Assembly (NCBI GenBank): GCA_016214985.1
Contig: JACRMM010000029.1
Location: 25,938-57,937, forward strand
Reading direction: 5' to 3'
DNA: 32,000 nucleotides
Origin: Deltaproteobacteria bacterium
GTDB taxonomy: Bacteria; Desulfobacterota; Deferrisomatia; Deferrisomatales; JACRMM01
Part shown: piece by piece, positions 6,444 to 30,987 of the stretch
Layout: every line of letters starts with the position of its first letter
Numbering within the stretch: the first letter of the stretch is position 1
Notes under the pieces: model-generated
Database searches by the model: none
What the model saw: the letters and a program-made list of their open reading frames with translations, nothing else
What the model was told of the DNA's origin: nothing
Translations under genes and position numbers: made by a program

Positions 6444-7298
6444 GGGAGGGGCGCCCTCAGACGGCGTGCCTTCGGCCGGGCATCGGCGGGCCGCGGCGAA
6501 CAGTTCTTCGATCCAGGGGTCCGGGCCCGTCTTCAGGGCCCGGAGCCGTCGCCGGGCCGCCGCGATCTGCCGGTCCAGCCCTCGTGCCATCTCGGCCAGC
6601 AGATCGACGCCTACCCGGTGGGCCCGCTCGACCTTTCGGTGCAACCGGCACAGGTCGGACCGACCGAGCTCTTGGAGCTCTGCGGCGATCGCACCGAGGC
6701 GCCGCCGGGCCTGTTCGATCATCCTGCACACCCGACGAAGCTCGACCTCCGGGTCGTCGCCGGCGACGTGCTCGGCGCGGTTCTCCCAGTCCAGCAGGAG
6801 GTCGCGGAGCGCCTCCTCGTCTCCCTGCGCATAGGCGCGGTTGGCCTCCGCCATGAAGCTCTGCCGCCGCACCCGATCCTCCTCGTCGTCGGCGAGGTCA
6901 GGGTGCAGCGTTTTTGCAGCCCGGCGGTAAAGCTTCTTCAGGTCCTCCGAGGCGTCGAACGGCTCCATTTTCTCGTCCGCCCCCGCCGCCCACTCCGCGG
7001 CCTGCTCGGAGTCCGCGGCCTGGGCTGCTGCGGCCGCCGCCCGCTCTCGCGCCGCCCGATCCCGAGGTGACGCCGCCGCGAGCAGCGCGGCGATCTCGGC
7101 CTCCACGCCGTCGAGCTCTGCGTAGCGAAGGCCGATCGTGCGCAGGTAGACGAGCTCGAAGGACTGGAGCTCGGCGGAAAGGGTCGCGAGCTCGAGCTCC
7201 CGTTCGGCCAGCTCCGACTGCAGGCGCGCCAGCTCAGCGGCCTTCCGGTCGAGCTCAGACTCGGTGGTTTCCGTCGGACCGGCGACGACGAGGTCCAT
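6441..7298 (-). CDS. J-domain (DnaJ-like) protein with N-terminal coiled-coil region
   Basis: 285-aa ORF. J-domain signature LKKLYRRAAKTLHPDLADDEEDRVRRQSFMAEANRAYAQGDEEAL contains the HPD tripeptide. The N-terminus is rich in heptad-like ELA/LQSEL repeats. Confidence 0.8.
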   Translation of the reverse strand: MDLVVAGPTETTESELDRKAAELARLQSELAERELELATLSAELQSFELVYLRTIGLRYAELDGVEAEIAALLAAASPRDRAARERAAAAAAQAADSEQAAEWAAGADEKMEPFDASEDLKKLYRRAAKTLHPDLADDEEDRVRRQSFMAEANRAYAQGDEEALRDLLLDWENRAEHVAGDDPEVELRRVCRMIEQARRRLGAIAAELQELGRSDLCRLHRKVERAHRVGVDLLAEMARGLDRQIAAARRRLRALKTGPDPWIEELFAAARRCPAEGTPSEGAPP

Positions 7299-7320
7299 GG
7301 GCGCAGTTCCTGCCCTCGCC

Positions 7321-7821
7321 TCAGGCCCCGTGGAGGGCCGGGAGAAGCCGCCGAATCGCGCGCAGGAGCTCAGCGAAATCGGCGTTCTTGTGGAGGACCG
7401 CGTCGGCCTGGGTCAGGTCGCCCTCGCCGAGCCCGGCCGACGTGTAGAAGAGGAAGGGTACGCCCGGCAGCAGAAGCCGGCAGGAGCGCAGGAACGCGAC
7501 CCCCTCGGGCTCGCCGTCGCGCCCCTGGCACTCCGCTAGGGAAGAAGAGAGGATCAGGTCCACCCGGTGGTCGCGGAGGAACGAGAGCGCCCCGGCTGCG
7601 GACGACCGGCACACCAGCGAAACGCTGCCCTCCGCCAGGAGCTCGGTCAGCTTTGCCCGAAGCACCTTCTGAATGAACGCGTGGCCGTCCACGTGCAGGA
7701 TGCACCGGCCGCGGGCGAGTTCCGTCAGACCCCGCGCGGCGATGCGGCCGGCACGCAGCGGGTCGAAGGAGGCCAGCGCCCGCGGGGTCACCGCCGGCAC
7801 GCCGCTGCCACCGCTCTCCAT
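7321..7821 (-). CDS. receiver-like (pseudo-receiver) domain protein lacking the canonical phospho-acceptor Asp
   Basis: Within ORF 7321..7908. The ATG at 7821 is preceded by GGGAGGA about 6 nt upstream. CheY-like layout: ILHVDGH (acidic pocket reduced), VDLILSSS where DLILxD is expected, FLFYTS (Thr), VLHKN (Lys). Directly upstream of the J-domain gene and co-oriented with it. Confidence 0.6.
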   Translation of the reverse strand: MESGGSGVPAVTPRALASFDPLRAGRIAARGLTELARGRCILHVDGHAFIQKVLRAKLTELLAEGSVSLVCRSSAAGALSFLRDHRVDLILSSSLAECQGRDGEPEGVAFLRSCRLLLPGVPFLFYTSAGLGEGDLTQADAVLHKNADFAELLRAIRRLLPALHGA

Positions 7822-8060
7822 GAACGTCCTCCCGTGTCTTCCCGGCAACGGCTCCGGTGGGCTCTCGGGGCCGCGGCTCATCTTCGCGGCAGCGGCGGTG
7901 GGCGTCAAGCCCGGTCCTCCGCACTCCGGCGCGACTCCGGGGGATCCTGGGACTTCCCCGCGCCGTTCGCAGCTGTGCAGAGAGAGGGGCCAAGAGGCAG
8001 CGGGCCCACCGGAGGGTTGCTCCGACGGGCCCGCGATGGATCTCGATGGCGGGCGTCGCG

Positions 8061-8738
8061 TCAGCCGAGCTGCCCCAGGATGGACTTGCTCACCTCCTCG
8101 ATGGACGGGGCGCCGTCCACGGAGAGGATCCGGATCCCCGCCACGCCCTTGAAATAGTTGACCGCGGCCATGGTGCCGGCCTTGGCGTCGTAGTAGATGT
8201 CGTGGCGCTTGTTGATGGCCGTCTCATCCTGATCGTCGGCTCGGGTCTTCAAATCACCGCCGCAGACCCGGCAGACGAGCTTGCCGTTCTTCTCCACGGG
8301 TTTGATCGCGTCGAAGGCGACGTGATTGGGATGGTTGTTGTCGTTTACGCACAGCCTTCGGCCCGTGATGCGCAGCTTTGCGATCTCGCGATCGAGGACG
8401 ATCTCGATCACGCAGTCCACGTTCATCCCGGCCTTTCGGAGGGCCTCGTGAAGGCTCTGGGCCTGGGCGGGGTTCCGTGGGAACCCGTCGAGCAGCCAGC
8501 CCTTGACGCAGTCGCTCTCGCGCAGCCGGTCGAGGATCATCGGGATCGTGATGTCGTCCGGGACGAGGTCGCCTCGGTCGATGAAGCTCTTGGCCTTCAT
8601 GCCGAGGGCCGTGCCCTCCGCAATGCTCTTCCGGAAGATGGCGCCGGACTCGATGTGGGGCACCTGGTACTTTTTCTGCACCAGCGTCCCCTGCGTGCCC
8701 TTGCCGCTCCCGTTCGGCCCGAAGATCAGGATGTTCAT
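8061..8738 (-). CDS. adk: adenylate kinase (long form with Cys-containing LID)
   Basis: The ATG at 8738 gives MNILIFGPNGSGKGTQG (P-loop). Also LLDGFPRN, a LID segment with CVNDNNHPNH...CRVCGG, and RADDQDE..KRHDIYY. The start was verified against the plus-strand 'cat' at 8736..8738. Confidence 0.95.
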   Translation of the reverse strand: MNILIFGPNGSGKGTQGTLVQKKYQVPHIESGAIFRKSIAEGTALGMKAKSFIDRGDLVPDDITIPMILDRLRESDCVKGWLLDGFPRNPAQAQSLHEALRKAGMNVDCVIEIVLDREIAKLRITGRRLCVNDNNHPNHVAFDAIKPVEKNGKLVCRVCGGDLKTRADDQDETAINKRHDIYYDAKAGTMAAVNYFKGVAGIRILSVDGAPSIEEVSKSILGQLG

Positions 8739-8847
8739 GCAGCGCCCCTTTCGTGGATGAAGTTGCCGCGGCCAAACGCCTCTTCGTCCCGGTCCGTGGT
8801 CCGGGACCTGGCGCGGGGCTCCTTTTAGCAGGGAATGGCGCAGACGG

Positions 8848-9414
8848 TCAAGGAGCGCGGTGGGCGACCGAAACACGGTTCGCCGCGTCCGTGCCGAAGA
8901 CCTCCGGGCGCCGGGGCACGCCTGGAGGGGGGGGCGGGAAGCAGCGGGCCAGGAAGGCCGAGACGCGCAGCCGGGTGTCGTCCTCGTCGACGCGGTTCTT
9001 CCTCACGGCGAGGCCCCCCAGGAACCCCACGCCGAGCGCGCCGAGGCGCCGCTCCAGGGCCCTCACGTAGCGGTCCTGGTCCCAGCCGCCGCAGGTCACG
9101 GCAACGGCTGTCGGCGGCAGTCGACGGCCGCAGGACGCCAGGAAGGCGTTCACGGGGGGGCAGGAGAGGGTCCACTTGGGCAGCAGGAGCAGGCACGCGT
9201 CGAAGGGAGCCGGGTCGGGCAGCGGGCCCCGGATCGGGACGCGAGACCCGGGAAGGAACGAGAGGGCGAGCCAGAGCGGGTAGGGCAGGTCAAGCCGGGG
9301 CACGAGGATCGCGTCACCGACCTCGTGGCCGGACTCCTGGAGCTCAGATCGGCAGCGTTCGGCAAGGGTTCGGGTGGTCCCGGTCCGAGAGTAGAGGCAT
9401 CGCAGTATCTTCAC
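8848..9414 (-). CDS. flavodoxin-like fold protein (function unknown)
   Basis: The GTG at 9414 gives VKILRCLYSRTGTTRTLAE, which resembles the flavodoxin-type N-terminal phosphate-binding loop (YSxTGNT). 188 aa. No clear SD, so the start is uncertain. Confidence 0.5.
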   Translation of the reverse strand: MKILRCLYSRTGTTRTLAERCRSELQESGHEVGDAILVPRLDLPYPLWLALSFLPGSRVPIRGPLPDPAPFDACLLLLPKWTLSCPPVNAFLASCGRRLPPTAVAVTCGGWDQDRYVRALERRLGALGVGFLGGLAVRKNRVDEDDTRLRVSAFLARCFPPPPPGVPRRPEVFGTDAANRVSVAHRAP

Positions 9415-9541
9415 GGGTCGCCCCGCCCCGCAGCGACGTGGGCCATGCCGGCCTCGGCTTCGCCTGCGGGAACGCCTGCTAAATCGCCCATCGTCGCACT
9501 CCCCGAGCGCACGGGCCCCGCGGCGTGAGCTCTTCGCCGGG

Positions 9542-10156
9542 TCAGGCTCGCGCGACGCGCAGCGCGGGCTTCGGGGGAGGAGGCGAGGGTTCGGCGCCCT
9601 CCCAGCGGCGGTAGAGGTGGTGCTCGACACCGAAGGCGTCGAGCACCTTGCCCACGGTCTGGTCGATGATCTCCTGCACCGTGGTGGGGCGATGGTACCA
9701 GGCCACCATGGGCGGCAGGATCATGGCGCCGAGGTCGGCGGCCTTGAGCATCAGTTCCAGATGACCCTTGTGCAGGGGCGTCTCCCGGGGCAGGAGCACG
9801 AGCCGGCGCCGCTCCTTGAGGGCCACGTCCGCCGCGCGGTTGAGGAGGTTTTCGTTGTAGGAGTGGACGATGCCAGAGAGCGTCTTCATGGAGCACGGCA
9901 CCACGGCCATCCCCTCGGTGAGGAAGGAGCCGCTGGCGATGGAGGCCGCGATGTTCTCCACGTCGTGCACGCAGCTCGCCAGCCGTTCGACATCGGCAAC
10001 CTTCCAGTCGGTCTCGAGCTCGATGTTGCGGCGGCCGGGGTGGGTGAGCACGAGGTGCGTCTCCACGTTCGTGCGGGCGAGGACCTCCAGCAGGCGCACG
10101 CCGTAGATGACGCCAGTGGCGCCGGAGATACCGACCACGATTCGTCTCTTCTTCAT
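9542..10156 (-). CDS. ubiX: UbiX-type flavin prenyltransferase (prFMN synthase)
   Basis: The ATG at 10156 (GGGAGG about 8 nt upstream) gives MKKRRIVVGISGATGVIYGVRLLEVL. Also VPCSMKTLSGI and LVLLPRETPLH, typical UbiX/Pad1 motifs. 4-nt overlap with the upstream UbiD gene. Confidence 0.93.
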   Translation of the reverse strand: MKKRRIVVGISGATGVIYGVRLLEVLARTNVETHLVLTHPGRRNIELETDWKVADVERLASCVHDVENIAASIASGSFLTEGMAVVPCSMKTLSGIVHSYNENLLNRAADVALKERRRLVLLPRETPLHKGHLELMLKAADLGAMILPPMVAWYHRPTTVQEIIDQTVGKVLDAFGVEHHLYRRWEGAEPSPPPPKPALRVARA

Positions 10157-22448: not shown

Positions 22449-23789
22449 GTGGAAGTGCCTGCTGGTGCTCGAACGCGAGGCGTGGCCCTTCTCGTGGCGC
22501 TCCTCAGCCTCGTCTCCGTTGCTGTGGGTGCCGAAACCGGTGCCCGCGTCCTGCTCGAGGACACCTTCGTCGACAACCGCAACGGTTGGGTCGAAGACGA
22601 CAACGAGGCCGCGCGGTTCGCCGTGGCGAGCGGGGCGTACACCCTGGAGTACAAACGCGAGAGCGGGTACTGGATCTCGACCCAGCCGGTCGAGCTCGGC
22701 CAAGACGACGACTTCGAGATCGATGCGGTCATCGACCGAGTTCGCGGCGGGAGCGATCACCGGTCCGGGCTCGTCTGGGGGTGTCGTCCGGAGGCTCCCC
22801 TCTCGTTCTCCTTCTTCGTCGTTTCTGCAGATGGGGTGGTGAGCGCCGGCAGACAGAGGGGCGACCACACTGTCTTCGTCCTGAAGGATGTGCCGTATCC
22901 CCGGATCCAGGGTGACGAAGGAGCACTTCGCCTGACGGTCCGCCGGCACGGGCTCGCCACTGCGTTGTCGGTCAACGGCTTCCGGATCGGTTCGATCTTG
23001 TCGGAGCCTCCCTTTGGCGGTGATGTGGGTTTCTACGTCCGTCATCCGGGCGGGGTCTGCGTCCGCTCGCTGCGTGTGAGCGCGACCCCGGTGCCGGGCC
23101 CGACGTCCCTATCGTCGGGCGCGGAGGAGCGGCAGCCTGGGCCGACCTCGGGCGAAACCTCGGGGAGTGCCCGCGCCGAGTACCGAGAGGCGGACAAGGC
23201 GCTCGGTGACCGGACGCGCCCCGCGGCGGCGCGCGTCGAGAAGGCCTCCGGCCATGCGCAAAGGGCCCTCGAACGCGCCCCGGGCGACGCGCGCGCCCAC
23301 GTCGTGGCAGCTCGCGTCGCGCTCGCGGGCGGCGACCGCCGCGGCAAGGGGTACGACGAGGAGAGCGTTCAAACGAAGGCTCTGCCGCTGATCGAGAAGG
23401 CCCTGGCGCTGGACCCCGATTCGGCCGACGCGCGCAGGACCGAGGCGGAGATCCGACTCGCGCTGCGCGACTCCCGGACGGCGAACCTGGCGCTTGCCCG
23501 AAGCCTCGAGCTCTCCCCCCCGAGAGGGTTGTCCTTCTTCCTGCTCGGCTGGTACTTCCGGCTGACCGGGCGGCCCGACGCGGCGGAAAAGGCGTGGGCC
23601 CAGGGGATCGCTGCTGCGGAGAGCGTCGACGAGCGCGCTGCGCTTCTCGAACGCGTCGCGTTGCAGTTCCTCTGCGACCGGGAGATCGAGCGGGCTACTG
23701 CGCTGCTTGCGGCGAGTCTCGCGCTGGTGCCTGGGTGCCCGGACGCGCTCCGCGATCTGGGAGACCTCCAGGCCGCCGCGGGCCGGTAG
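22449..23789 (+). CDS. secreted protein: signal peptide, unassigned N-terminal beta-rich domain (possibly lectin/jelly-roll-like), C-terminal TPR repeats; 3' end interrupted
   Basis: GTG start. Signal-like GVALLVALLSLVSVAVGAE, then the N-terminal domain (LLEDTFVDNRNGWVEDDNEAARF...). TPR-like helices from about residue 270. The ORF ends at a TAG that falls inside a TPR consensus. Confidence 0.7.
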   Translation: MEVPAGARTRGVALLVALLSLVSVAVGAETGARVLLEDTFVDNRNGWVEDDNEAARFAVASGAYTLEYKRESGYWISTQPVELGQDDDFEIDAVIDRVRGGSDHRSGLVWGCRPEAPLSFSFFVVSADGVVSAGRQRGDHTVFVLKDVPYPRIQGDEGALRLTVRRHGLATALSVNGFRIGSILSEPPFGGDVGFYVRHPGGVCVRSLRVSATPVPGPTSLSSGAEERQPGPTSGETSGSARAEYREADKALGDRTRPAAARVEKASGHAQRALERAPGDARAHVVAARVALAGGDRRGKGYDEESVQTKALPLIEKALALDPDSADARRTEAEIRLALRDSRTANLALARSLELSPPRGLSFFLLGWYFRLTGRPDAAEKAWAQGIAAAESVDERAALLERVALQFLCDREIERATALLAASLALVPGCPDALRDLGDLQAAAGR

Positions 23790-23988
23790 GACGAGGCGGC
23801 TGAGAGCTACCGCAGGGCCCTGGAGAGTGCCGACTCCGCGGAGACGCGGCACCGTCTGGCCCTGGCCCAGGCGAACCGGGCAAGGCACTGGAGGGGGAGG
23901 GGCGGTTCGAGGAGGTTCTCGCGGAGTACCGCGGGGCGGCCGAGTGCGACGGAGCCCAGCCTGACCCCTGAAGCCAGCCTCGGGTTGC

Positions 23989-24269: not shown

Positions 24270-24332
24270 ATGAAGAAGTCCGCATACTCCAAGCCCAAGA
24301 TCGTCGGCGCCTCGGCTGTGCACCCTTGTTGA
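24270..24332 (+). CDS. 20-codon small ORF MKKSAYSKPKIVGASAVHPC (candidate peptide or leader ORF)
   Basis: ATG at 24270 with GAGGAGGA ending about 7 nt upstream. 15 of 19 third positions after the ATG are G/C. C-terminal Cys. Sits 262 nt upstream of the cytochrome start. No family recognised. Confidence 0.3.
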   Translation: MKKSAYSKPKIVGASAVHPC

Positions 24333-24593: not shown

Positions 24594-27500
24594 ATGAGCC
24601 AGGGGCGGATCTTCGCAACCGGAATCTTGCTGGCGGGGGCGCTTTTCACGTCCTTGCCTCCGGGCGCTGGCGCAGAGGAGACCTGCACCATCTGCCACCA
24701 GGCCGGCGGAATCGGGGGATTGCCGAACCACCACTCGCTCAGCTCCTCCCCACCCTGTTCCCAGTGTCATCCGTCCTCCCCTGTGGGCGACAGTTGTCTT
24801 GGCTGCCACCGCGCCTTTGCGCCGCTTCACCACAATAATTTAGGAGTAAACTGGTCATCAGAAGACTGCTTTAGTAAATGCCATCCCCAGCCCCCAGGCG
24901 CGTGTCTCACCCCTTCTTGCCACTCCGTGATCCCTACCACGGCCACCACGGGCCACCACGATCCCACGGTACTCTCGACAAAAGTCTGCCTGGACTGCCA
25001 CACGGCCGACCCAAGACCGGCCGGCGACTGCACGGGTTGCCACTCCGACGTCGGAACCGCGCACGCCAACGCCGAGTGTTTCAGCTGCCACAACAACGCG
25101 ATGAAGAGCAGGCGCCCCATCGGACCCGAGTTCATCCTTCCTTCGCACCATGTGAACGTCCAGGCACCGGCCCAGATCGGCAAGGACCAGTGCAAGGCCT
25201 GTCATGACCTCACGGCCCACATGGCCGGGGCCGTCCTGCTCAAGGACGCAAACGGGGGCGCCTCGATCTCTTACGCCGGCGAGGCCTCGGCCACGCCCTT
25301 CTGCCTGAGCTGTCACGACGAGGATCACAAGACTTCGCAGCCGTTCTCCGACGGCCTGACCCCCGCCTCCTCCGCGTGGGATTTCAAATCCGTGGGCCTG
25401 AAGTTCAATAGCACCGAGGTCGTGAGCTCCAACAAGTATCCTCCCACGGCGCCCGCGCCCAACATGGCGGGGCAACTTTACAACACCGTGCCCGACGTGC
25501 AGAGGGCACTATCGGCCCACGGCAACCCGGCCGGCAACCTGGCCAACGGCAGCGCCTCGGATGCGAGGGTACCCTGCCTGGCATGCCACAACGCCCACGG
25601 GTCGCCGTCACCGAGCCTCCTGTTCAGCAGCGCGACCTACCAGCCGGCCAGCGAAGAGGACTTCTGCTGGGATTGCCACACCAACGCCGCCGCTTCGCCC
25701 CACAAGGCTTGGGACTACCTGCCGAACGATCGGGTCAGGGATTACTTCGGCGATTCGCGCTGGGGCATGAACGACGGCACAGGGTTCACGGTCGAATGGA
25801 TGGGGTCGTTCGCTTACAAGGATGCGCCCTTCAAGGGCTCCCACTTCCGTCCCAGCAAGCGAAAGATCAGCGACACGAACTGGCCCCGGAGCTCCGTCAC
25901 CTGCTCAAGCTGCCACGACCCCCACGGCGTCGACCCGAACAACGCCGCCAAGGCCTACATGGTGCCGCTCCTGAAGGGGACCTGGCTGATCTCTCCCTTC
26001 AAGGAAGACCGCGCGCCCCTGGCAAGCTACCAGAGCCCCCTGCGAGACAGCATCGCCGACCGCAACGGGAAGGCCGACCAGCCGAGGAGCAATCCAGACC
26101 TCTCGTTCAACAACACCCCCAACCCCGGGAGCGGGTACCCGAACGGAACGGGCGGGTCGGGCCACGAGGGGTACTTCATTGAAGACAACACCTTCGGCGT
26201 GTGGAACCCCCGGACCTCGGCGCCCGCGGCCGCCGGGGAGTGGCGGACCGTCCTCTCGAACAGCGAGACGATGCAGATCAACCGGATCGCCGAGACCGAC
26301 GCGCAGTTCGCCGGGCTCTGCCTCCAGTGCCACCCCAAGACGAGCCTCCTGTCGGGCTGGACCGGCCACGGGACTGTCAAGGGGTGGGGAGGCGCCAAGC
26401 GAGACCTCATCCCCAGCTCGCTTGCCAGTAGGGGCGGCGAGGAAGGCCCGGGGAACTCCATGCACGCCATGGGCAAGTACAACAGCGGGGGGGAAGACGG
26501 AATCGCGTACGGCCGCGGCTACCGCTGGGGCGTCAATCCCAGCGCCCAGGGGACGAGCGGGTACATTCAGGCCGACTACCACCAGTTCACCTGCTCCAAG
26601 TGCCACTCCCCCCACGCCGCCAAGGCGCCGAGGCTGCTCGTCACCAACTGCCTCGACTCCAAGGGCAACCACACGAGCTATCCGAAGGCCAAGACCGCAC
26701 AGGCCGCGAACTGCCACAGCACCCAACGCAACCTGGCGTGGAACACGCTGACTCCCTGGACGCAGACCGAAGCTCCCATGCAATACACGATCATGGCGAC
26801 GTCGACGACGGGCGGCACGATCTCGCCGACGGGAAATGTTCTGGTCGACCAGGGCCGCAGCCAGACCTTCACGATGACTCCGGCCAGCTCCAACTTCGTG
26901 CTCTCCTACTTCAGGGTGGACGGGGTCACCCAGCCCGCGGGCGCGAGCTACACGTTCACGAACGTCACCGCCGACCACACGATTGTCGCCACCTTCACGT
27001 CCTTGAATCTGGCCCAGGGCAAGACGGCCACCGCCTCGTCGACCCGCAGTGGGACCAACCCTTCCTACGCCGCGTCCATGGCGGTCGACGGCAGCACGAC
27101 CACCTCCTGGATGAGCAGCTCGACCTCCAGCGCCCAGTGGGTGCGGGTCGACCTCGGGTCGAGCCAGACCCTCTCCGTCGTCCAGGTCGCCTGGCCGGCG
27201 ACCTACTTCGCCAAGAACTTCCAGATCCAGACGTCGACCGACGGGACGAACTTCACGACGCGGTACACGGGCTCCAACGCCACCGGGACGGTCACCTACG
27301 CGAGCTTCGCCGCGGTGAGCGCCCGCTACGTCCGCGTCTACTGCACGACGCCCAACAACACCTCCTACTACGGCGTGTCGGAGCTCCAGGCCTTTGCGTC
27401 GGCGCCGCACAACAACGCGCCCACGGCTGATGCGGGGCCGGACAAGACGGGCACGGTTGGCACCGCGATCTCGTTCGCTGGGTCCGGGACCGACTCCGAC

Positions 27501-28997
27501 GGCACGGTCGTCGGCTACTCCTGGAGCTGGGGCGACGGCACGGCGGACACGAATACCCAGAACGCCAGCCACACCTACGCTGCCGTGGGCACCTACACCG
27601 CGACCCTGACCGTGACCGACGACCGCGGTGCCACCGGGTCCAACACGGCGGTGGTCACGGTCGGCGAGCCTGTGCCGAACAGTCCTCCCACGGCCAACGC
27701 GGGGCCGGACCAGACGGGCACGGCCGGCACTGCGATCTCCTTTGCCGGCTCCGGGACCGACTCTGACGGCACGATCGTCGGCTACTCCTGGAACTGGGGT
27801 GACGGCACGGCTCTTACCAACACGCAGAACGCGAGCCATACCTACGCCGCGGCCGGCACCTACACCGCGACCCTGACGGTCACCGACAACCTGGGCGCCA
27901 CGGGGTCCGACACGGCTGCGGTCACCGTGAGCGCGGTGCCGGTCAACCTCGCCCTGAACGCGGTGGCCACGGCCTCGTCGCAGTCCAGCTCGACCTACTC
28001 GGCCGCCAAGGCAGTCGACGGCAGCACTTCCACCTACTGGAGGAGCAGCTCGGGCGGCAGCCAGTGGCTCCAGGTCAATGTCGGCTCAACCGCCAGCCTC
28101 TCCCGCGTCAAGGTTTCCTGGAGCTCTAGTTACTACGCCCGGAGCTTCCAGATCCAGACCTCGCTCGACGGGACGAACTTCGTGACGCAGTACTCGACCA
28201 GCTCGGGGGGCAGCAGCCCCACGGACGTCAGCTTCCCCGTGGTTGCCGCACGGTACGCGCGCGTCTACGGCACGGTGGCCAACTCCTCCGACTACCGGAT
28301 CACGGAGTTGGAGGTCTACGGGACGACGGTGCACAACGACTCGCCCATCGCCAACGCCGGCTCGGACAAGACCGGGTATGCCGGCTCCCCCATCTCCTTC
28401 ACCGGGTCCGGCACGGACCCCGACGGCTCGGTCGTCGGGTACTCCTGGAGCTGGGGCGACGGCACGGCCGCCACGAACACACAGGACGCGAGCCACACCT
28501 ATGCGGCGGCCGGCATGTACACCGCAACCCTGACGGTCACCGACGATCTGGGTGCCATTGGGACCGACACGGCGGTGGTCACGGTCAGCGCGCCTCCGAA
28601 CAGTCCTCCCACGGCCAACGCCGGAACGGACAAGACGGGCACGGCCGGCACGGCGGTCTCGTTCACCGGCTCCGGGACCGATTCCGACGGGTCGATCGTC
28701 GGCTACTCCTGGAACTGGGGCGACGGCACGGCCGTCACGAACACCCAGAACGCCAGCCACACCTATGTCGCGGTGGGCACGTACACTGCGACCCTGACCG
28801 TCACCGACAACCAGGGTGCAACCGGCAGCGACACTGCGCTGGTCACCGTCAGCGCGGCTCCGCCCAACCAGCCGCCGGTGGCGAACGCCGGAACGGACAA
28901 GACGGGCACTGGAGCTGGGGCGACGGCACGGCCAACACGAACACCCAGAACGCCAGCCACACCTATGCCGCGGCGGGCACCTACACTGCGACCCTGA
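24594..28997 (+). CDS. giant secreted multiheme cytochrome c fused to InlB-B-repeat-like, F5/8-type-C (discoidin) and PKD domains (5' reading frame; leaves its native frame at 28909/28910)
   Basis: ATG at 24594 (GGGAGGG upstream) with signal peptide MSQGRIFATGILLAGALFTSLPPGAGA. 13 CxxCH motifs (CTICH, CSQCH, CLGCH, CLDCH, CTGCH, CFSCH, CKACH, CLSCH, CLACH, CWDCH, CSSCH, CLQCH, CSKCH) plus CFSKCH and CLTPSCH. Then YTIMATSTTGGTISP...YTFTNVTADHTIVATF, discoidin-like blocks (AVDGSxxTxW...WxxVDLG...FQIQTS.DGTNF...ARYVRVY) and PKD blocks (DAGPDKTG...GSGTDSDG.(I/V)VGYSW.WGDGT...HTY...GTYTATLTVTD). Confidence 0.88.
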   Translation: MSQGRIFATGILLAGALFTSLPPGAGAEETCTICHQAGGIGGLPNHHSLSSSPPCSQCHPSSPVGDSCLGCHRAFAPLHHNNLGVNWSSEDCFSKCHPQPPGACLTPSCHSVIPTTATTGHHDPTVLSTKVCLDCHTADPRPAGDCTGCHSDVGTAHANAECFSCHNNAMKSRRPIGPEFILPSHHVNVQAPAQIGKDQCKACHDLTAHMAGAVLLKDANGGASISYAGEASATPFCLSCHDEDHKTSQPFSDGLTPASSAWDFKSVGLKFNSTEVVSSNKYPPTAPAPNMAGQLYNTVPDVQRALSAHGNPAGNLANGSASDARVPCLACHNAHGSPSPSLLFSSATYQPASEEDFCWDCHTNAAASPHKAWDYLPNDRVRDYFGDSRWGMNDGTGFTVEWMGSFAYKDAPFKGSHFRPSKRKISDTNWPRSSVTCSSCHDPHGVDPNNAAKAYMVPLLKGTWLISPFKEDRAPLASYQSPLRDSIADRNGKADQPRSNPDLSFNNTPNPGSGYPNGTGGSGHEGYFIEDNTFGVWNPRTSAPAAAGEWRTVLSNSETMQINRIAETDAQFAGLCLQCHPKTSLLSGWTGHGTVKGWGGAKRDLIPSSLASRGGEEGPGNSMHAMGKYNSGGEDGIAYGRGYRWGVNPSAQGTSGYIQADYHQFTCSKCHSPHAAKAPRLLVTNCLDSKGNHTSYPKAKTAQAANCHSTQRNLAWNTLTPWTQTEAPMQYTIMATSTTGGTISPTGNVLVDQGRSQTFTMTPASSNFVLSYFRVDGVTQPAGASYTFTNVTADHTIVATFTSLNLAQGKTATASSTRSGTNPSYAASMAVDGSTTTSWMSSSTSSAQWVRVDLGSSQTLSVVQVAWPATYFAKNFQIQTSTDGTNFTTRYTGSNATGTVTYASFAAVSARYVRVYCTTPNNTSYYGVSELQAFASAPHNNAPTADAGPDKTGTVGTAISFAGSGTDSDGTVVGYSWSWGDGTADTNTQNASHTYAAVGTYTATLTVTDDRGATGSNTAVVTVGEPVPNSPPTANAGPDQTGTAGTAISFAGSGTDSDGTIVGYSWNWGDGTALTNTQNASHTYAAAGTYTATLTVTDNLGATGSDTAAVTVSAVPVNLALNAVATASSQSSSTYSAAKAVDGSTSTYWRSSSGGSQWLQVNVGSTASLSRVKVSWSSSYYARSFQIQTSLDGTNFVTQYSTSSGGSSPTDVSFPVVAARYARVYGTVANSSDYRITELEVYGTTVHNDSPIANAGSDKTGYAGSPISFTGSGTDPDGSVVGYSWSWGDGTAATNTQDASHTYAAAGMYTATLTVTDDLGAIGTDTAVVTVSAPPNSPPTANAGTDKTGTAGTAVSFTGSGTDSDGSIVGYSWNWGDGTAVTNTQNASHTYVAVGTYTATLTVTDNQGATGSDTALVTVSAAPPNQPPVANAGTDKTGTGAGATARPTRTPRTPATPMPRRAPTLRP

Positions 28998-29452
28998 TCG
29001 TCACCGACAACCTGGGCGCCACGGGGTCCGACACGGCAGCGGTCACGGTCAGCGCAATGCCCACGAACCTTGCGCTCAACCAGACGGCTACCGCCTCGTC
29101 GACGCGCAGCGGAACCTCGTACACGGCGGCCAAGGCGGTCGACGGCAGCGCGTCCACCTCGTGGATGAGCAGCACGACCTCCGGCGCCCAGTGGGTCCGA
29201 GTGGACCTCGGGGCGAGCTACACGATCTCGAACGTCAAGGTCGTCTGGCCTGCGACGTACTACGCTAAGGCGTTCCAGATCCAGACTTCGAACGACGGCA
29301 CGAACTTCACGTCACGGTACTCGACCAGCAGTGGAGCCGGCGGCACCACCACCGCGACCTTCACTGCGGTGAGCGCCCGCTACGTGCGCGTCTACTGCAC
29401 GACTCGCAACAACTCGTCCTACTACGGGGTCTCCGAGCTGGAGGTCTACCCC
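27004..29452 (+). repeat. intragenic tandem domain repeats: discoidin-PKD-PKD-discoidin-PKD-PKD-PKD(truncated)-discoidin
   Basis: PKD copies share long near-identical DNA stretches, for example ggctactcctggaactggggcgacggcacggc. Approximate copy boundaries: 27004, 27402, 27669, 27933, 28327, 28591, 28856, 29057. Confidence 0.85.
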
Positions 29453-29455
29453 TGA
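28910..29455 (+). CDS. 3' continuation of the cytochrome gene in the +2 frame (rest of fifth PKD plus third F5/8-type-C domain)
   Basis: From TGG at 28910 the frame reads WSWGDGTANTNTQNASHTYAAAGTYTATLIVTDNLGATGSDTAAVTVSAMPTNLALNQTATASS... and runs to the stop at 29453..29455. The track lists only the M-started part, 29057..29455. It is followed by a strong terminator. Confidence 0.65.
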   Translation, partial: WSWGDGTANTNTQNASHTYAAAGTYTATLIVTDNLGATGSDTAAVTVSAMPTNLALNQTATASSTRSGTSYTAAKAVDGSASTSWMSSTTSGAQWVRVDLGASYTISNVKVVWPATYYAKAFQIQTSNDGTNFTSRYSTSSGAGGTTTATFTAVSARYVRVYCTTRNNSSYYGVSELEVYP

Positions 29456-29476
29456 CGGGTCGGACGCGGAACACAG

Positions 29477-29510
29477 GGGCGGCGCTCCGCGGGGCGCCGC
29501 CCTTTTTCTT
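29477..29510 (+). terminator. rho-independent terminator
   Basis: GGGCGGCGC (29477..29485), 8-nt loop, GCGCCGCCC (29494..29502), then TTTTTCTT. Begins 22 nt after the stop at 29455. Confidence 0.7.
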
Positions 29511-29559: not shown

Positions 29560-30987
29560 ATGAGCTGCCACATGCCCATCAAGGTTCCTGTCGTTGCGGG
29601 GGTCTTCCTTCTTTCGGCCCTGGCGGTGGTGTGCCGTGCCGGCCAGGGCGCCGGAACGCCGGCCTCTGTCGACGCGCCGGCCGCGTTCTCCGTCAGCGGC
29701 GTCATCGACCGAGACACGGTCTGGAGCGGAACGGTCTCGGTCGTGGGAAGTGTTCAGGTCCTCTCCGGGGTCACCCTGAACATCCGGCCCGGGACCCGGG
29801 TTCAGTTCGCCCTTCCTCCCCCCAAGGCCGACTCCGGGGAGGAGCGCCTCTACGTGCAGAAGGGAGCAACGCTCATTGCCCGGGGCACGGACGCGCAGCC
29901 GATCGTCTTCCTGTCCGCCACGCCCGGCGTGCGTTGGTTCGGCATCGAGCTCCACTCCGGGCACGACCGAGACGTGTTCGACCGTTGCCGCGTCCGCGAC
30001 TCCCGGATGGGGATCGCCTGCGTTTCCACCTCGCCGGTCATCCAGAACTGCGTGTTCGAGGAGAACCAGCAGGGAGTCAGCCTCTGGCGCCAGGCCAACC
30101 CCATCGTCCGAAACGGCAGTTTCCTCCGCAACGCCGCCGCCGTCGTGGTCAGCATGCAATCGGCCCCGACCATCGCGCACTGTGAGATCGAGGGGTCCGA
30201 AGAGGTCGGCATCCGCATCGACGCGGGGTGTGGCGGCAGCGTGGAGGAGACCCGCCTCAGGGGCAACAAGGTCGGCATCCAGAGGCGGGGTTCGGCCCCC
30301 TTTCGGGTCGCCGGCAACCGTTTCGATGCCAACGCGGTTGCCCTGTCGATCGATCACGAAGGGTCCGTGGCCGAGGTCAGGGGCAACACGTTCTCCGGCA
30401 ACCAGCAGGGGGTTCTTGTAGCCACCAAGGCTTCGGTGCAGATCGCGGGCAACACCTTTTTCGCCAACGGTGTGGCGATCCACTTCGACGGCCGCTCCAA
30501 GGGCATCGCGGAGCACAACGACTTCAGGGGCAACCGGATCGGCATTCGCCTTTCTCGCACGTCGAGCCCGGAGATCACGGGCAACGAGTTCTCCAAGAAC
30601 GAGACGGCCGTGCTCTGCGAGACCTCGTCCTACCCGGTCCTTGCCGACAACAACTTCCGGGGGAACGCCACGGCCGTCCGGGCCGGCGATCATCAGTCCT
30701 TCGAATGGACGCGCAGTATCTGGAAACGAGAGGAATGGGAGGGCTGGGCGGAGAGTTACGGCGCGAACAGGATCGTCGCTCGAGACAACTACTGGGGCGA
30801 AGAGACGACGCGCGAAATGGAAGCCGGAGCGACGCCGATTGGAGCGATCTTCGACGTCCACCAGTCCCGAGACGTCGTGGTCGACGGCAAGCCCTATCGA
30901 CGAGACGAGGTCGACTTCCGCCCCTTCCAGTCGGCGCCGATCGCTGCGGCGGGAGCGCCGCGCTTACCGACGCCACGGACCGAGTAG
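29560..30987 (+). CDS. secreted right-handed parallel beta-helix repeat protein (NosD/CASH-like)
   Basis: ORF 29542..30987 (TTG). ATGs at 29560 and 29572 precede the signal peptide MPIKVPVVAGVFLLSALAVVCRAGQG. About ten PbH1-type repeats (xNxFxxNxxGI/V: IQNCVFEENQQGVSL, VRNGSFLRNAAAVVV, VAGNRFDANAVALSI, VRGNTFSGNQQGVLV, IAGNTFFANGVAIHF, EHNDFRGNRIGIRL, ITGNEFSKNETAVLC, LADNNFRGNATAV). Confidence 0.85.
   Translation: MSCHMPIKVPVVAGVFLLSALAVVCRAGQGAGTPASVDAPAAFSVSGVIDRDTVWSGTVSVVGSVQVLSGVTLNIRPGTRVQFALPPPKADSGEERLYVQKGATLIARGTDAQPIVFLSATPGVRWFGIELHSGHDRDVFDRCRVRDSRMGIACVSTSPVIQNCVFEENQQGVSLWRQANPIVRNGSFLRNAAAVVVSMQSAPTIAHCEIEGSEEVGIRIDAGCGGSVEETRLRGNKVGIQRRGSAPFRVAGNRFDANAVALSIDHEGSVAEVRGNTFSGNQQGVLVATKASVQIAGNTFFANGVAIHFDGRSKGIAEHNDFRGNRIGIRLSRTSSPEITGNEFSKNETAVLCETSSYPVLADNNFRGNATAVRAGDHQSFEWTRSIWKREEWEGWAESYGANRIVARDNYWGEETTREMEAGATPIGAIFDVHQSRDVVVDGKPYRRDEVDFRPFQSAPIAAAGAPRLPTPRTE

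Follow-up and report, generated by a model that had tools for sequence, protein, structure and literature searches.

A predicted secreted multihaem cytochrome with a PKD and discoidin tail and a conserved beta-helix partner in a deltaproteobacterium

The stretch analyzed here, called the window, comprises 32,000 nucleotides (nt) of contig JACRMM010000029.1 from the deltaproteobacterial assembly GCA_016214985.1, and the gene in question begins at window position 24594 on the forward strand. It encodes a predicted secreted multihaem c-type cytochrome whose haem part is fused to a long tail of PKD and F5/8 type C (discoidin/CBM32-like) domains, and a gene for a secreted beta-helix protein follows it. 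Homology indicates that the haem module belongs to a large catalogued family of giant cytochromes of the Geobacter type. The product is read as an outer-surface electron-transfer protein that is positioned by its binding tail and works with the beta-helix partner, with a probability of about 0.6. As assembled, the gene is broken near its 3' end by a 67-nt gap in the fifth PKD copy.

The reading frame opens at an ATG at 24594, just downstream of GGGAGG, and closes at 28995–28997, giving 1,467 amino acids (aa) with a gene-like G+C content at third codon positions (GC3) of 0.87. The Sec signal described in an earlier note on this DNA was borne out, with cleavage between MSQGRIFATGILLAGALFTSLPPGAGA and EE, and the signal peptide has no lipobox cysteine. 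The database gene call (P0002) begins at an internal GTG (aa 112) and omits the signal peptide together with five haem sites. A patch of 51–60 nt with 33–37% G+C (window 24825–24885) lies in this gene of 65–69% G+C; it codes for HHNNLGVNWSSEDCFSKCH, with the CX3CH site included, and may be the cause of the late P0002 start. An exact-product look-up found no identical product in other assemblies, and the database cluster has one member. The features of the locus, all on the forward strand, are as follows.

24594–24674 (+): start codon and Sec signal peptide, aa 1–27 (sequence inspection)
24675–24980 (+): N-terminal haem extension, aa 28–129, with three CxxCH, one CX3CH (aa 92) and one CX4CH (aa 104) (motif scan)
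24981–26759 (+): conserved haem module, aa 130–722 (homologue alignments A1 and A3)
26772–26984 (+): InlB B-repeat-like (Flg_new_2) domain (PF18998, E 2.6e-4, 21.3 bits)
27006–27383 (+): F5/8 type C domain 1 (Pfam PF00754/PF22633)
27402–27935 (+): PKD copies 1 and 2, 267 nt each (PKD_4; repeat families D1/D2; alignment A2)
27945–28325 (+): F5/8 type C domain 2 (Pfam; repeat D3)
28326–28853 (+): PKD copies 3 and 4, 264 nt each (Pfam; repeats; alignment A2)
28854–29056 (+): broken PKD copy 5, in the main frame 5' of the junction and in the -1 frame 3' of it
28910–28997 (+): out-of-frame tail of 28 aa and stop of the assembled open reading frame (ORF inspection)
29057–29455 (+): F5/8 type C domain 3 and ancestral stop (29453–29455), intact in the -1 frame (Pfam E 2.5e-25)
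29475–29504 (+): intrinsic terminator directly after the ancestral stop codon, 13-bp stem with 10 G-C pairs, T tract
29560–30987 (+): gene for a secreted NosD-like right-handed beta-helix protein (Pfam Beta_helix 1.7e-29, NosD 1.1e-27)
22449–23789 (+): gene for a TPR-repeat protein, ending at an in-frame TAG inside a TPR repeat

Several CxxCH motifs behind an export signal mark the product as a multihaem c-type cytochrome, with haem attachment predicted from the motifs. The earlier count of 13 CxxCH, one CX3CH and one CX4CH is exact, all of them lying within aa 31–671, and Pfam Paired_CXXCH_1 matches this part with E 3e-12. The CxxCHxxHG context, which had been ascribed to many sites, was overstated, as it occurs at only two (aa 328 and 437), with CxxCHxxHA at one more (aa 667). 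The earlier note also overlooked an additional pair, C686-X20-C707-H708, which could be a 16th haem site; when it is counted, 32 of the 32 cysteines of the haem part stand in motif pairs.

The haem part is best described, from its alignment with homologues, as a conserved 11-site module preceded by a five-site N-terminal extension of its own, which is missing from the closest homologue. The module of approximately 590 aa (11 sites in 593 aa, approximately 54 residues per site) has ten CxxCH sites (aa 132, 146, 162, 200, 237, 328, 358, 437, 576, and 667) and ends with the long C...CH pair. In an alignment of 51 sequences, the sites at aa 162, 200, 237, 328, 358, 437, 576, and 667 are invariant, those at aa 132 and 146 are nearly so, and nine non-motif histidines (aa 186, 209, 309, 335, 417, 444, 592, 663, and 674) are invariant as well. 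At the end of the module, C686 is kept in 50 of the 51 sequences and C707-H708 in all 51, with an intervening loop of n = 20–89 residues. This conserved long CXnCH could be an unconventional covalent haem site, or a single-cysteine site plus a ligand. MccA sulfite reductase carries a CX15CH haem site; the long Cys-Xn-Cys-His pattern of the window module is a candidate for a site of this kind, but searches of the PDB found no homology to MccA.

No relative of the haem module was found in the PDB by single-sequence or profile search. The profile search matched only the c7-type front modules and fn3 tails of homologues, and OmcS, at E 0.32, was not significant. The CxxxxCH...CXXCH model (PF09698/TIGR01904) has no match in the protein in Pfam or NCBIfam, nor has PF22113 (MtrC/MtrF domain II/IV), which in homologues matches N-terminal parts only. 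An AlphaFold model of aa 28–730 has a mean pLDDT of 52.5, too poor for a meaningful fold search; Foldseek returned no match with this low-confidence model, and no conclusion on the fold was drawn.

The module has many homologues. A database search among word-sharing candidates found 280 proteins matching the haem part at E<=1e-3, and an exhaustive profile-free scan found 484 representative proteins matching the module at the same threshold, 61 of them below 1e-30. The closest is P0003 from a Deferrisomatales metagenome-assembled genome (MAG), with 898 aa and 56–58% identity, followed by P0122 (1,670 aa, 50% identity) and by P0004 from Candidatus Desantisbacteria (1,161 aa, 49–51% identity). 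The remaining homologues are 25–45% identical and mostly giant "CxxxxCH/CxxCH domain" cytochromes from Geobacter, Geotalea, Geomonas, and uncultured Nitrospirota, Krumholzibacteriota, Planctomycetota, Spirochaetota, and Gammaproteobacteria; in the long ones, the matching stretch is usually the C-terminal end of the haem region. Searches of 40 related genomes (where the best match, at 41%, covered part of the module) and of metagenome contigs yielded no close orthologue, and among species genomes only the Desantisbacteria MAG has a close one.

Named members of the Geobacter-type family match the window protein with E values of 1e-20 to 1e-50, and the core haem sites align in all 51 sequences, which places the module by homology in this large catalogued family of uncharacterized function. 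The giant cytochromes of Geobacter, Geotalea, and Geomonas (e.g., G. metallireducens ABB32695.1, 1,521 aa) share the ~590-aa module with 10 CxxCH and the terminal C...CH, and they are secreted, predicted to be extracellular, and likewise uncharacterized. They differ in being only 25–30% identical, in having 25–37 haems with long c7-type arrays before the module, and in mostly lacking lectin or PKD tails. Judging by accession order, ABB32695.1 is probably Gmet_2470, which is reported to have 34 haems and to be induced during interspecies electron transfer (PMC10989804). A survey of Desulfuromonadia cytochromes described very large, probably extracellular, wire-like, and uncharacterized cytochromes outside porin operons (PMC11492766). 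The earlier note did not recognize the architecture as a characterized family; the haem module has no characterized relative, but the architecture is not isolated, given the catalogued family of that survey. More distant relatives of the module occur in Ca. Thiodiazotropha (L036, L069) and Sideroxydans (L045, L057), where the cytochrome gene and an NHL beta-propeller gene preceding it form a conserved unit; these cytochromes have 13 haems, approximately 1,335 aa, and a ConA-like lectin domain (Laminin_G_3).

The beta-helix gene downstream is intact. Its product is 43% identical over 408 aa to that of the gene downstream of P0003 in the Deferrisomatales MAG, and a beta-helix gene also lies downstream of the orthologue in the Desantisbacteria contig. 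By these comparisons, the cytochrome and the beta-helix gene form a pair conserved in three lineages, and the beta-helix neighbor that had been taken as part of the locus has turned out to be a conserved partner. It could offer a scaffold for docking, act on polysaccharide, or assist in maturation. It is not a true NosD by the family model, scoring 68 bits against a TIGR04247 cut-off of 300, and the window contains no nos genes. The idea that beta-helix homologues are general cytochrome partners was rejected for the distant ones (29% identity), which in Geothermobacter and a Desulfuromonadales MAG stand in arrays with CarboxypepD_reg-like genes and no cytochrome. In these arrays (L087, Geothermobacter hydrogeniphilus; L089/L090, Desulfuromonadales MAG), three to four NosD-like genes alternate with CarboxypepD_reg/DUF4198-like genes behind a gene for an 811-aa membrane protein without haem motifs.

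The tail begins with the InlB-B-like stretch, whose earlier assignment as an InlB-B repeat is borderline: the 21.3 bits reached with PF18998 fall short of the cut-off of 23.6, yet the whole profile is covered and many homologues of the stretch carry PF18998. The Pfam domain scan supports the discoidin and PKD calls, with PKD_4 at E 3.9e-82 (four copies) and F5_F8_type_C at E 2.5e-41 (two copies) in the main frame. The earlier count of three F5/8 type C and five PKD domains stands for those four and two, whereas the fifth PKD copy is broken and the third F5/8 type C domain lies in another frame. The fusion of cytochrome and tail is not a chimera formed at a repeat, because the frame crosses unique sequence from the haem sites into PKD copy 4 unbroken.

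The tails of relatives differ widely. The three closest homologues carry fn3 tails, P0122 also with an N-terminal NHL propeller, and the Pfam lists of the best 120 homologues include fn3, TIG, Laminin_G_3, Big_5, thrombospondin-3, RCC1, and others; F5/8 type C or PKD domains occur among these 120 only in the window protein. Tails with PKD or F5/8 type C domains were found only on fragments from closer relatives, which were reached through their beta-helix neighbor (56–59% identity) and whose contigs are too short to extend to a haem module. Among these fragments, the upstream gene ends with an F5/8 type C terminus in L088 and with an Fn3_assoc/CHB_HEX_C domain in L091, while L092 has two intact PKD copies with a motif almost identical to that of the window, followed by a domain of ~220 aa without assignment. 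Two further fragments, P0317 (PKD-F5/8C-PKD-F5/8C) and P0329 (F5/8C-F5/8C), are 70–80% identical to the window cassette. The sequences therefore indicate that the number, order, and tip of the tail domains shift quickly between relatives, in the manner of a cassette. A swappable targeting part would show such differences, with fn3, PKD and F5/8 type C, Fn3_assoc, and Laminin_G_3 found among relatives.

Fusion of such haem modules to beta-sandwich or lectin domains (fn3, TIG, Laminin_G_3, and others) appears to be common in the family, as judged from these domain lists. Precedents in the literature are OetF with fn3 domains (PMC10553843) and OmcZ with Ig domains (PMC9473688); a literature search found nothing on multihaem cytochromes with PKD domains in extracellular electron transfer. 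Fibrillar adhesins consist of repeated Ig-like stalk domains and an adhesive tip (PMC8286594), and the corresponding combination of a repeated stalk and an adhesive domain is found here, with four intact PKD copies, one broken copy, and three F5/8 type C domains. They share the stalk-like repeats, the interspersed lectin-type domains, and a copy number and tip that vary between relatives. They differ in that the "head" of the window protein is a 700-aa haem domain and that no known surface-anchoring signal is present: no match to an anchor or dedicated secretion signal (LPXTG, type I, type V, or type IX secretion, PEP-CTERM) was found with Pfam and NCBIfam, and the downstream frame ends in an F5/8 type C domain.

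The earlier note had taken 24594–29455 as one gene of approximately 1,640 aa, but this span measures 4,862 nt, which is no multiple of 3, and the frame from 24594 ends at the stop given above. The repeat analysis places the starts of successive PKD copies 267, 657, 264, and then 200 nt apart, and copy 5 lacks 67 nt relative to copies 1–4 (columns 56–122 of alignment A2) at the junction 28909/28910. This out-of-frame gap leads the main frame into the 28-residue nonsense tail, so that the product has 1,467 aa instead of approximately 1,640. Read in the -1 frame, 28910–29452 contains the end of a PKD domain (profile positions 39–85) and the third F5/8 type C domain (Pfam E 2.5e-25), without stops and with a GC3 of 0.90. 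Relatives end with ...YYGVSELEVYK (P0317) and with ...GVSELQVYQ and a stop (L088), and a like hairpin follows the upstream gene in L088. The ancestral gene end is placed at 29453–29455 because of this GC3, the terminator at 29475–29504, and the matching ends of relatives. Despite the break, 89% of the protein is in frame, including all haem sites, two lectin-type domains, and four PKD copies, and the last 11% is lost. Programmed -1 frameshifting was rejected because copy 5, when aligned to its four sister copies, simply has a gap of 67 nt.

The 67-nt deletion is, on the sequence evidence, probably real. Words of at least 14 nt spanning the junction occur nowhere else in the genome, microhomology at the junction is essentially absent, and exact matches of its flanks to other copies extend over no more than 26 and 24 nt, so a de Bruijn (k-mer) assembler would make this junction only if the reads hold it; moreover, the missing 67 nt correspond to no repeat unit, and the neighboring TPR gene has a defect too. 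These points speak against an assembly or consensus error, under which the cell's gene would be intact, with approximately 1,640 aa, five PKD, and three F5/8 type C domains. Such an error is possible but doubtful, and it would suit the source, a MAG of 72 contigs with 5.3% contamination, as well as the position of the break within a repeat array whose copies are 75–87% identical. It would also suit the undecayed state of the downstream remnant (E 2.5e-25, GC3 0.90, no stops), the terminator placed after the downstream stop codon, and the retention of the terminal F5/8 type C domain in frame by relatives.

For the mechanism, we infer a location, a haem occupancy, a binding target, and a direction of electron flow as follows. 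The protein would be a Sec-exported c-type cytochrome of a metal-respiring, Deferrisomatales-related bacterium, most likely on or beyond the outer membrane. In the periplasm, it would receive haems at 15 sites of classical or near-classical type, and a 16th (CX20CH) may carry one as well. Secretion across the outer membrane would probably be of type II, because no other signal was found and secretins are present. The tail, with one InlB-B domain first, would act as a stalk (PKD) with lectin-like units (F5/8 type C) that holds the haem module on a glycan-bearing or solid surface, for instance a partner cell, a mineral with a coating, or exopolysaccharide made by the cell itself. Electrons from outer-membrane conduits of the cell would be handed on at this bound surface, and the secreted beta-helix protein would act as the conserved partner of the haem module. 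According to Rollefson (2011), as cited in PMC5732950, Geobacter cytochromes are anchored by exopolysaccharide, and the fn3-bearing OetF was proposed to bind the matrix or recognize a partner (PMC10553843). Of the earlier reading as a tethered extracellular electron conduit, the secreted fusion of cytochrome with PKD and discoidin domains stands, and an outer-surface role with a binding tail would be the most reasonable interpretation of it.

Several observations weigh against this interpretation. The beta-helix gene tracks the haem module and not the lectin tail, a cell-anchoring or sorting signal was not found, and the ligand of discoidin domains is not predictable from sequence. For the haem part, the structural model is of poor quality and resembles no known fold, the window holds no porin-cytochrome or type II secretion genes, with neighbors for aromatic and malonate metabolism instead, and the truncated cytochrome gene beside a broken TPR gene may mean that the locus is decaying. 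Finally, the sparse haem module with its strongly conserved non-haem segments could indicate an enzyme and not a wire.

In that last case, the haem module would catalyze a redox reaction, as a terminal reductase or oxidase equipped with a special haem or site, and the tail would deliver it to a particulate or polymer-bound substrate. This is unlikely, though it accounts for several properties, namely, the sparse haems, the long non-haem segments invariant in 51 homologues (e.g., VPLLKGTW..SP.KEDR and HG.VKGWG), and the unusual conserved CXnCH at the module end, which is reminiscent of the CX15CH of MccA. True NosD serves metal-centre assembly, and a partner of the NosD-like class would also fit an enzyme, but that partner falls below the NosD family cut-off. 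In addition, searches of the PDB by sequence and by profile revealed no similarity to MccA, NrfA, octahaem, or OcwA-type enzymes, and the count of conserved non-motif histidines roughly fits bis-His ligation of most haems. It is rather improbable that the locus is decaying and its product non-functional: the frameshifting deletion, the in-frame TAG of the upstream TPR gene, and the lack of a close orthologue in 40 related genomes would agree with decay, but the protein loses no more than its final 11%, it keeps the signal peptide, every haem site, and two lectin and four PKD domains in frame with a GC3 of 0.87, and the beta-helix partner is intact. The tail as a removable pro-region, cut by a protease so that the haem module polymerizes into a conductive filament, is the least probable of the readings considered. 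It follows the example of OmcZ, whose preprotein combines a haem domain with tandem C-terminal Ig domains removed by the subtilisin-like OzpA (PMC9473688), and Peptidase_S8 and PpiC-type isomerase genes lie just upstream in the Deferrisomatales orthologue locus. In the PDB searches, however, OmcZ, OmcS, and OmcE showed no detectable homology, the window has no S8 protease, and a lectin-type tail that varies between relatives resembles a targeting device and not a mere pro-region.

A bolder extension of the outer-surface, tail-positioned electron-transfer reading is speculative and improbable as a whole. It describes an undescribed outer-surface electron-transfer device of the 11-site module and the beta-helix partner, in which an exchangeable tip (discoidin/PKD, fn3, ConA-like lectin, or others) would select a glycan, partner cell, or mineral coating, and the terminal CXnCH with its 20–89-residue loops would be a new class of covalent haem site needing an extra CcsA/ResB lyase.

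Outer-surface cytochromes with accessory beta-sandwich domains are already a known kind, and several described systems resemble the window locus. The OmcZ (GSU2076) preprotein and OzpA of Geobacter sulfurreducens have the same layout of signal peptide, multihaem domain, and tandem C-terminal beta-sandwich domains (PMC9473688). They differ in that PDB sequence and profile searches found no homology between the haem domains, that the window has no adjacent S8 protease, and that its tail is eight to nine domains long with lectin-type modules. An OzpA-type Peptidase_S8 is absent among the window genes, and one lies two genes upstream of the orthologue in L010. OetF, from an extracellular electron transfer cluster of syntrophic sulfate reducers, is likewise an extracellular multihaem cytochrome with an adhesion-type domain, a likeness taken from its description (PMC10553843); it lies inside a porin-cytochrome cluster, whereas the window gene does not.

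In gene content, no described system comes closer than the Uet cluster of Ca. Tenderia electrophaga and Gallionella, in which the undecahaem UetJ is accompanied by a peptidyl-prolyl isomerase (PPIase), a TPR protein, a beta-barrel, NHL propellers, and c7 cytochromes (10.1101/2022.05.06.490989; PMC10734462). Its central cytochrome has eleven sites with a doubled-CXXCH motif, like the window module, which is likened to UetJ by description only. Uet-like accessory genes are found around orthologues, with a PPIase, a porin-like barrel, and a small c7 cytochrome in L010 and an NHL propeller fused in P0122, and NHL genes stand beside distant relatives of the haem module, as in Uet. The systems differ in that UetJ has no extra domains, the Uet clusters have no beta-helix partner, and the window has no Uet accessory gene. 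What is new in comparison is the definition of the 11-site module with its long CXnCH, the conserved beta-helix partner, and the cassette-like variation of the tail.

The other neighbors contribute little to the locus. The TPR gene had been counted as a member, but orthologues do not conserve it, it ends at an in-frame TAG, and it was rejected as part of the cytochrome unit. Around its end (window 23700–23980), the sequence reads ...LQAAAGR, stop, DEAAESYRRALE..., with TPR-like sequence beyond the stop, and the gene may be a pseudogene or contain a sequence error. An ORF of 20 codons (MKKSAYSKPKIVGASAVHPC, window 24270–24332) lies inside the 800-nt leader of the cytochrome gene; its earlier description as a secreted protein has no support, and nothing points to a real ORF. 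The same leader gave no Rfam match at the gathering score for a riboswitch or leader RNA (GEMM-type, as in Geobacter cytochrome genes), the best being at chance level (E 0.79). The other genes of the 32,000-nt window form a phenol (aromatic) and malonate metabolism block unrelated to the cytochrome.

Elsewhere in the genome, 57 ORFs have at least four CxxCH motifs, and there are two secretins and several CcsA/ResB paralogues. In the Deferrisomatales orthologue locus L010, genes for a Peptidase_S8, a PpiC-type isomerase, and an FxLYD-domain protein lie upstream (6799–9981), a layout that resembles the omcZ-ozpA arrangement, and the cytochrome/beta-helix pair is followed by a gene for a 425-aa porin-like beta-barrel and one for a small c7-like cytochrome. 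Homologues of these trailing two genes occur in the window organism on the minus strand of G000:C59:25340-33210 (L095), a cluster of four genes encoding an MtrC/OmcA-like decahaem cytochrome with collagen-type repeats, a 420-aa barrel, a small c7-like cytochrome, and a cytochrome of ~30 haems. The 420-aa protein is predicted to be all-beta, with outer-membrane porins as its best structural matches at low model confidence. From this model, a porin-cytochrome-like module appears to be present in the genome, unlinked to the window gene. An MtrB-type porin is absent from the genome.

RpoC is 83% identical to that of the Deferrisomatales MAG, so the organism is probably related to Deferrisoma and its iron-reducing group. 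The C-terminal part of rpoC is matched twice on one contig (G000:C64:10401-14674, 83% and 80% against the Deferrisomatales rpoC), which could reflect a duplication, misassembly, or contamination.

Research on extracellular electron transfer has yet to explain how extracellular cytochromes are fixed in position and directed toward a given mineral, matrix, or partner cell. Since similar fusions are on record and the function is only inferred, the value of the window protein lies in a well-defined target family and not in surprise. The conserved beta-helix partner has not been singled out by genomic cytochrome surveys, and the conserved long CXnCH is a concrete candidate for unconventional haem attachment in a family of hundreds of members. 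The protein and its relatives suggest a modular answer to the question of positioning, in which a conserved haem module would be combined with swappable binding domains.

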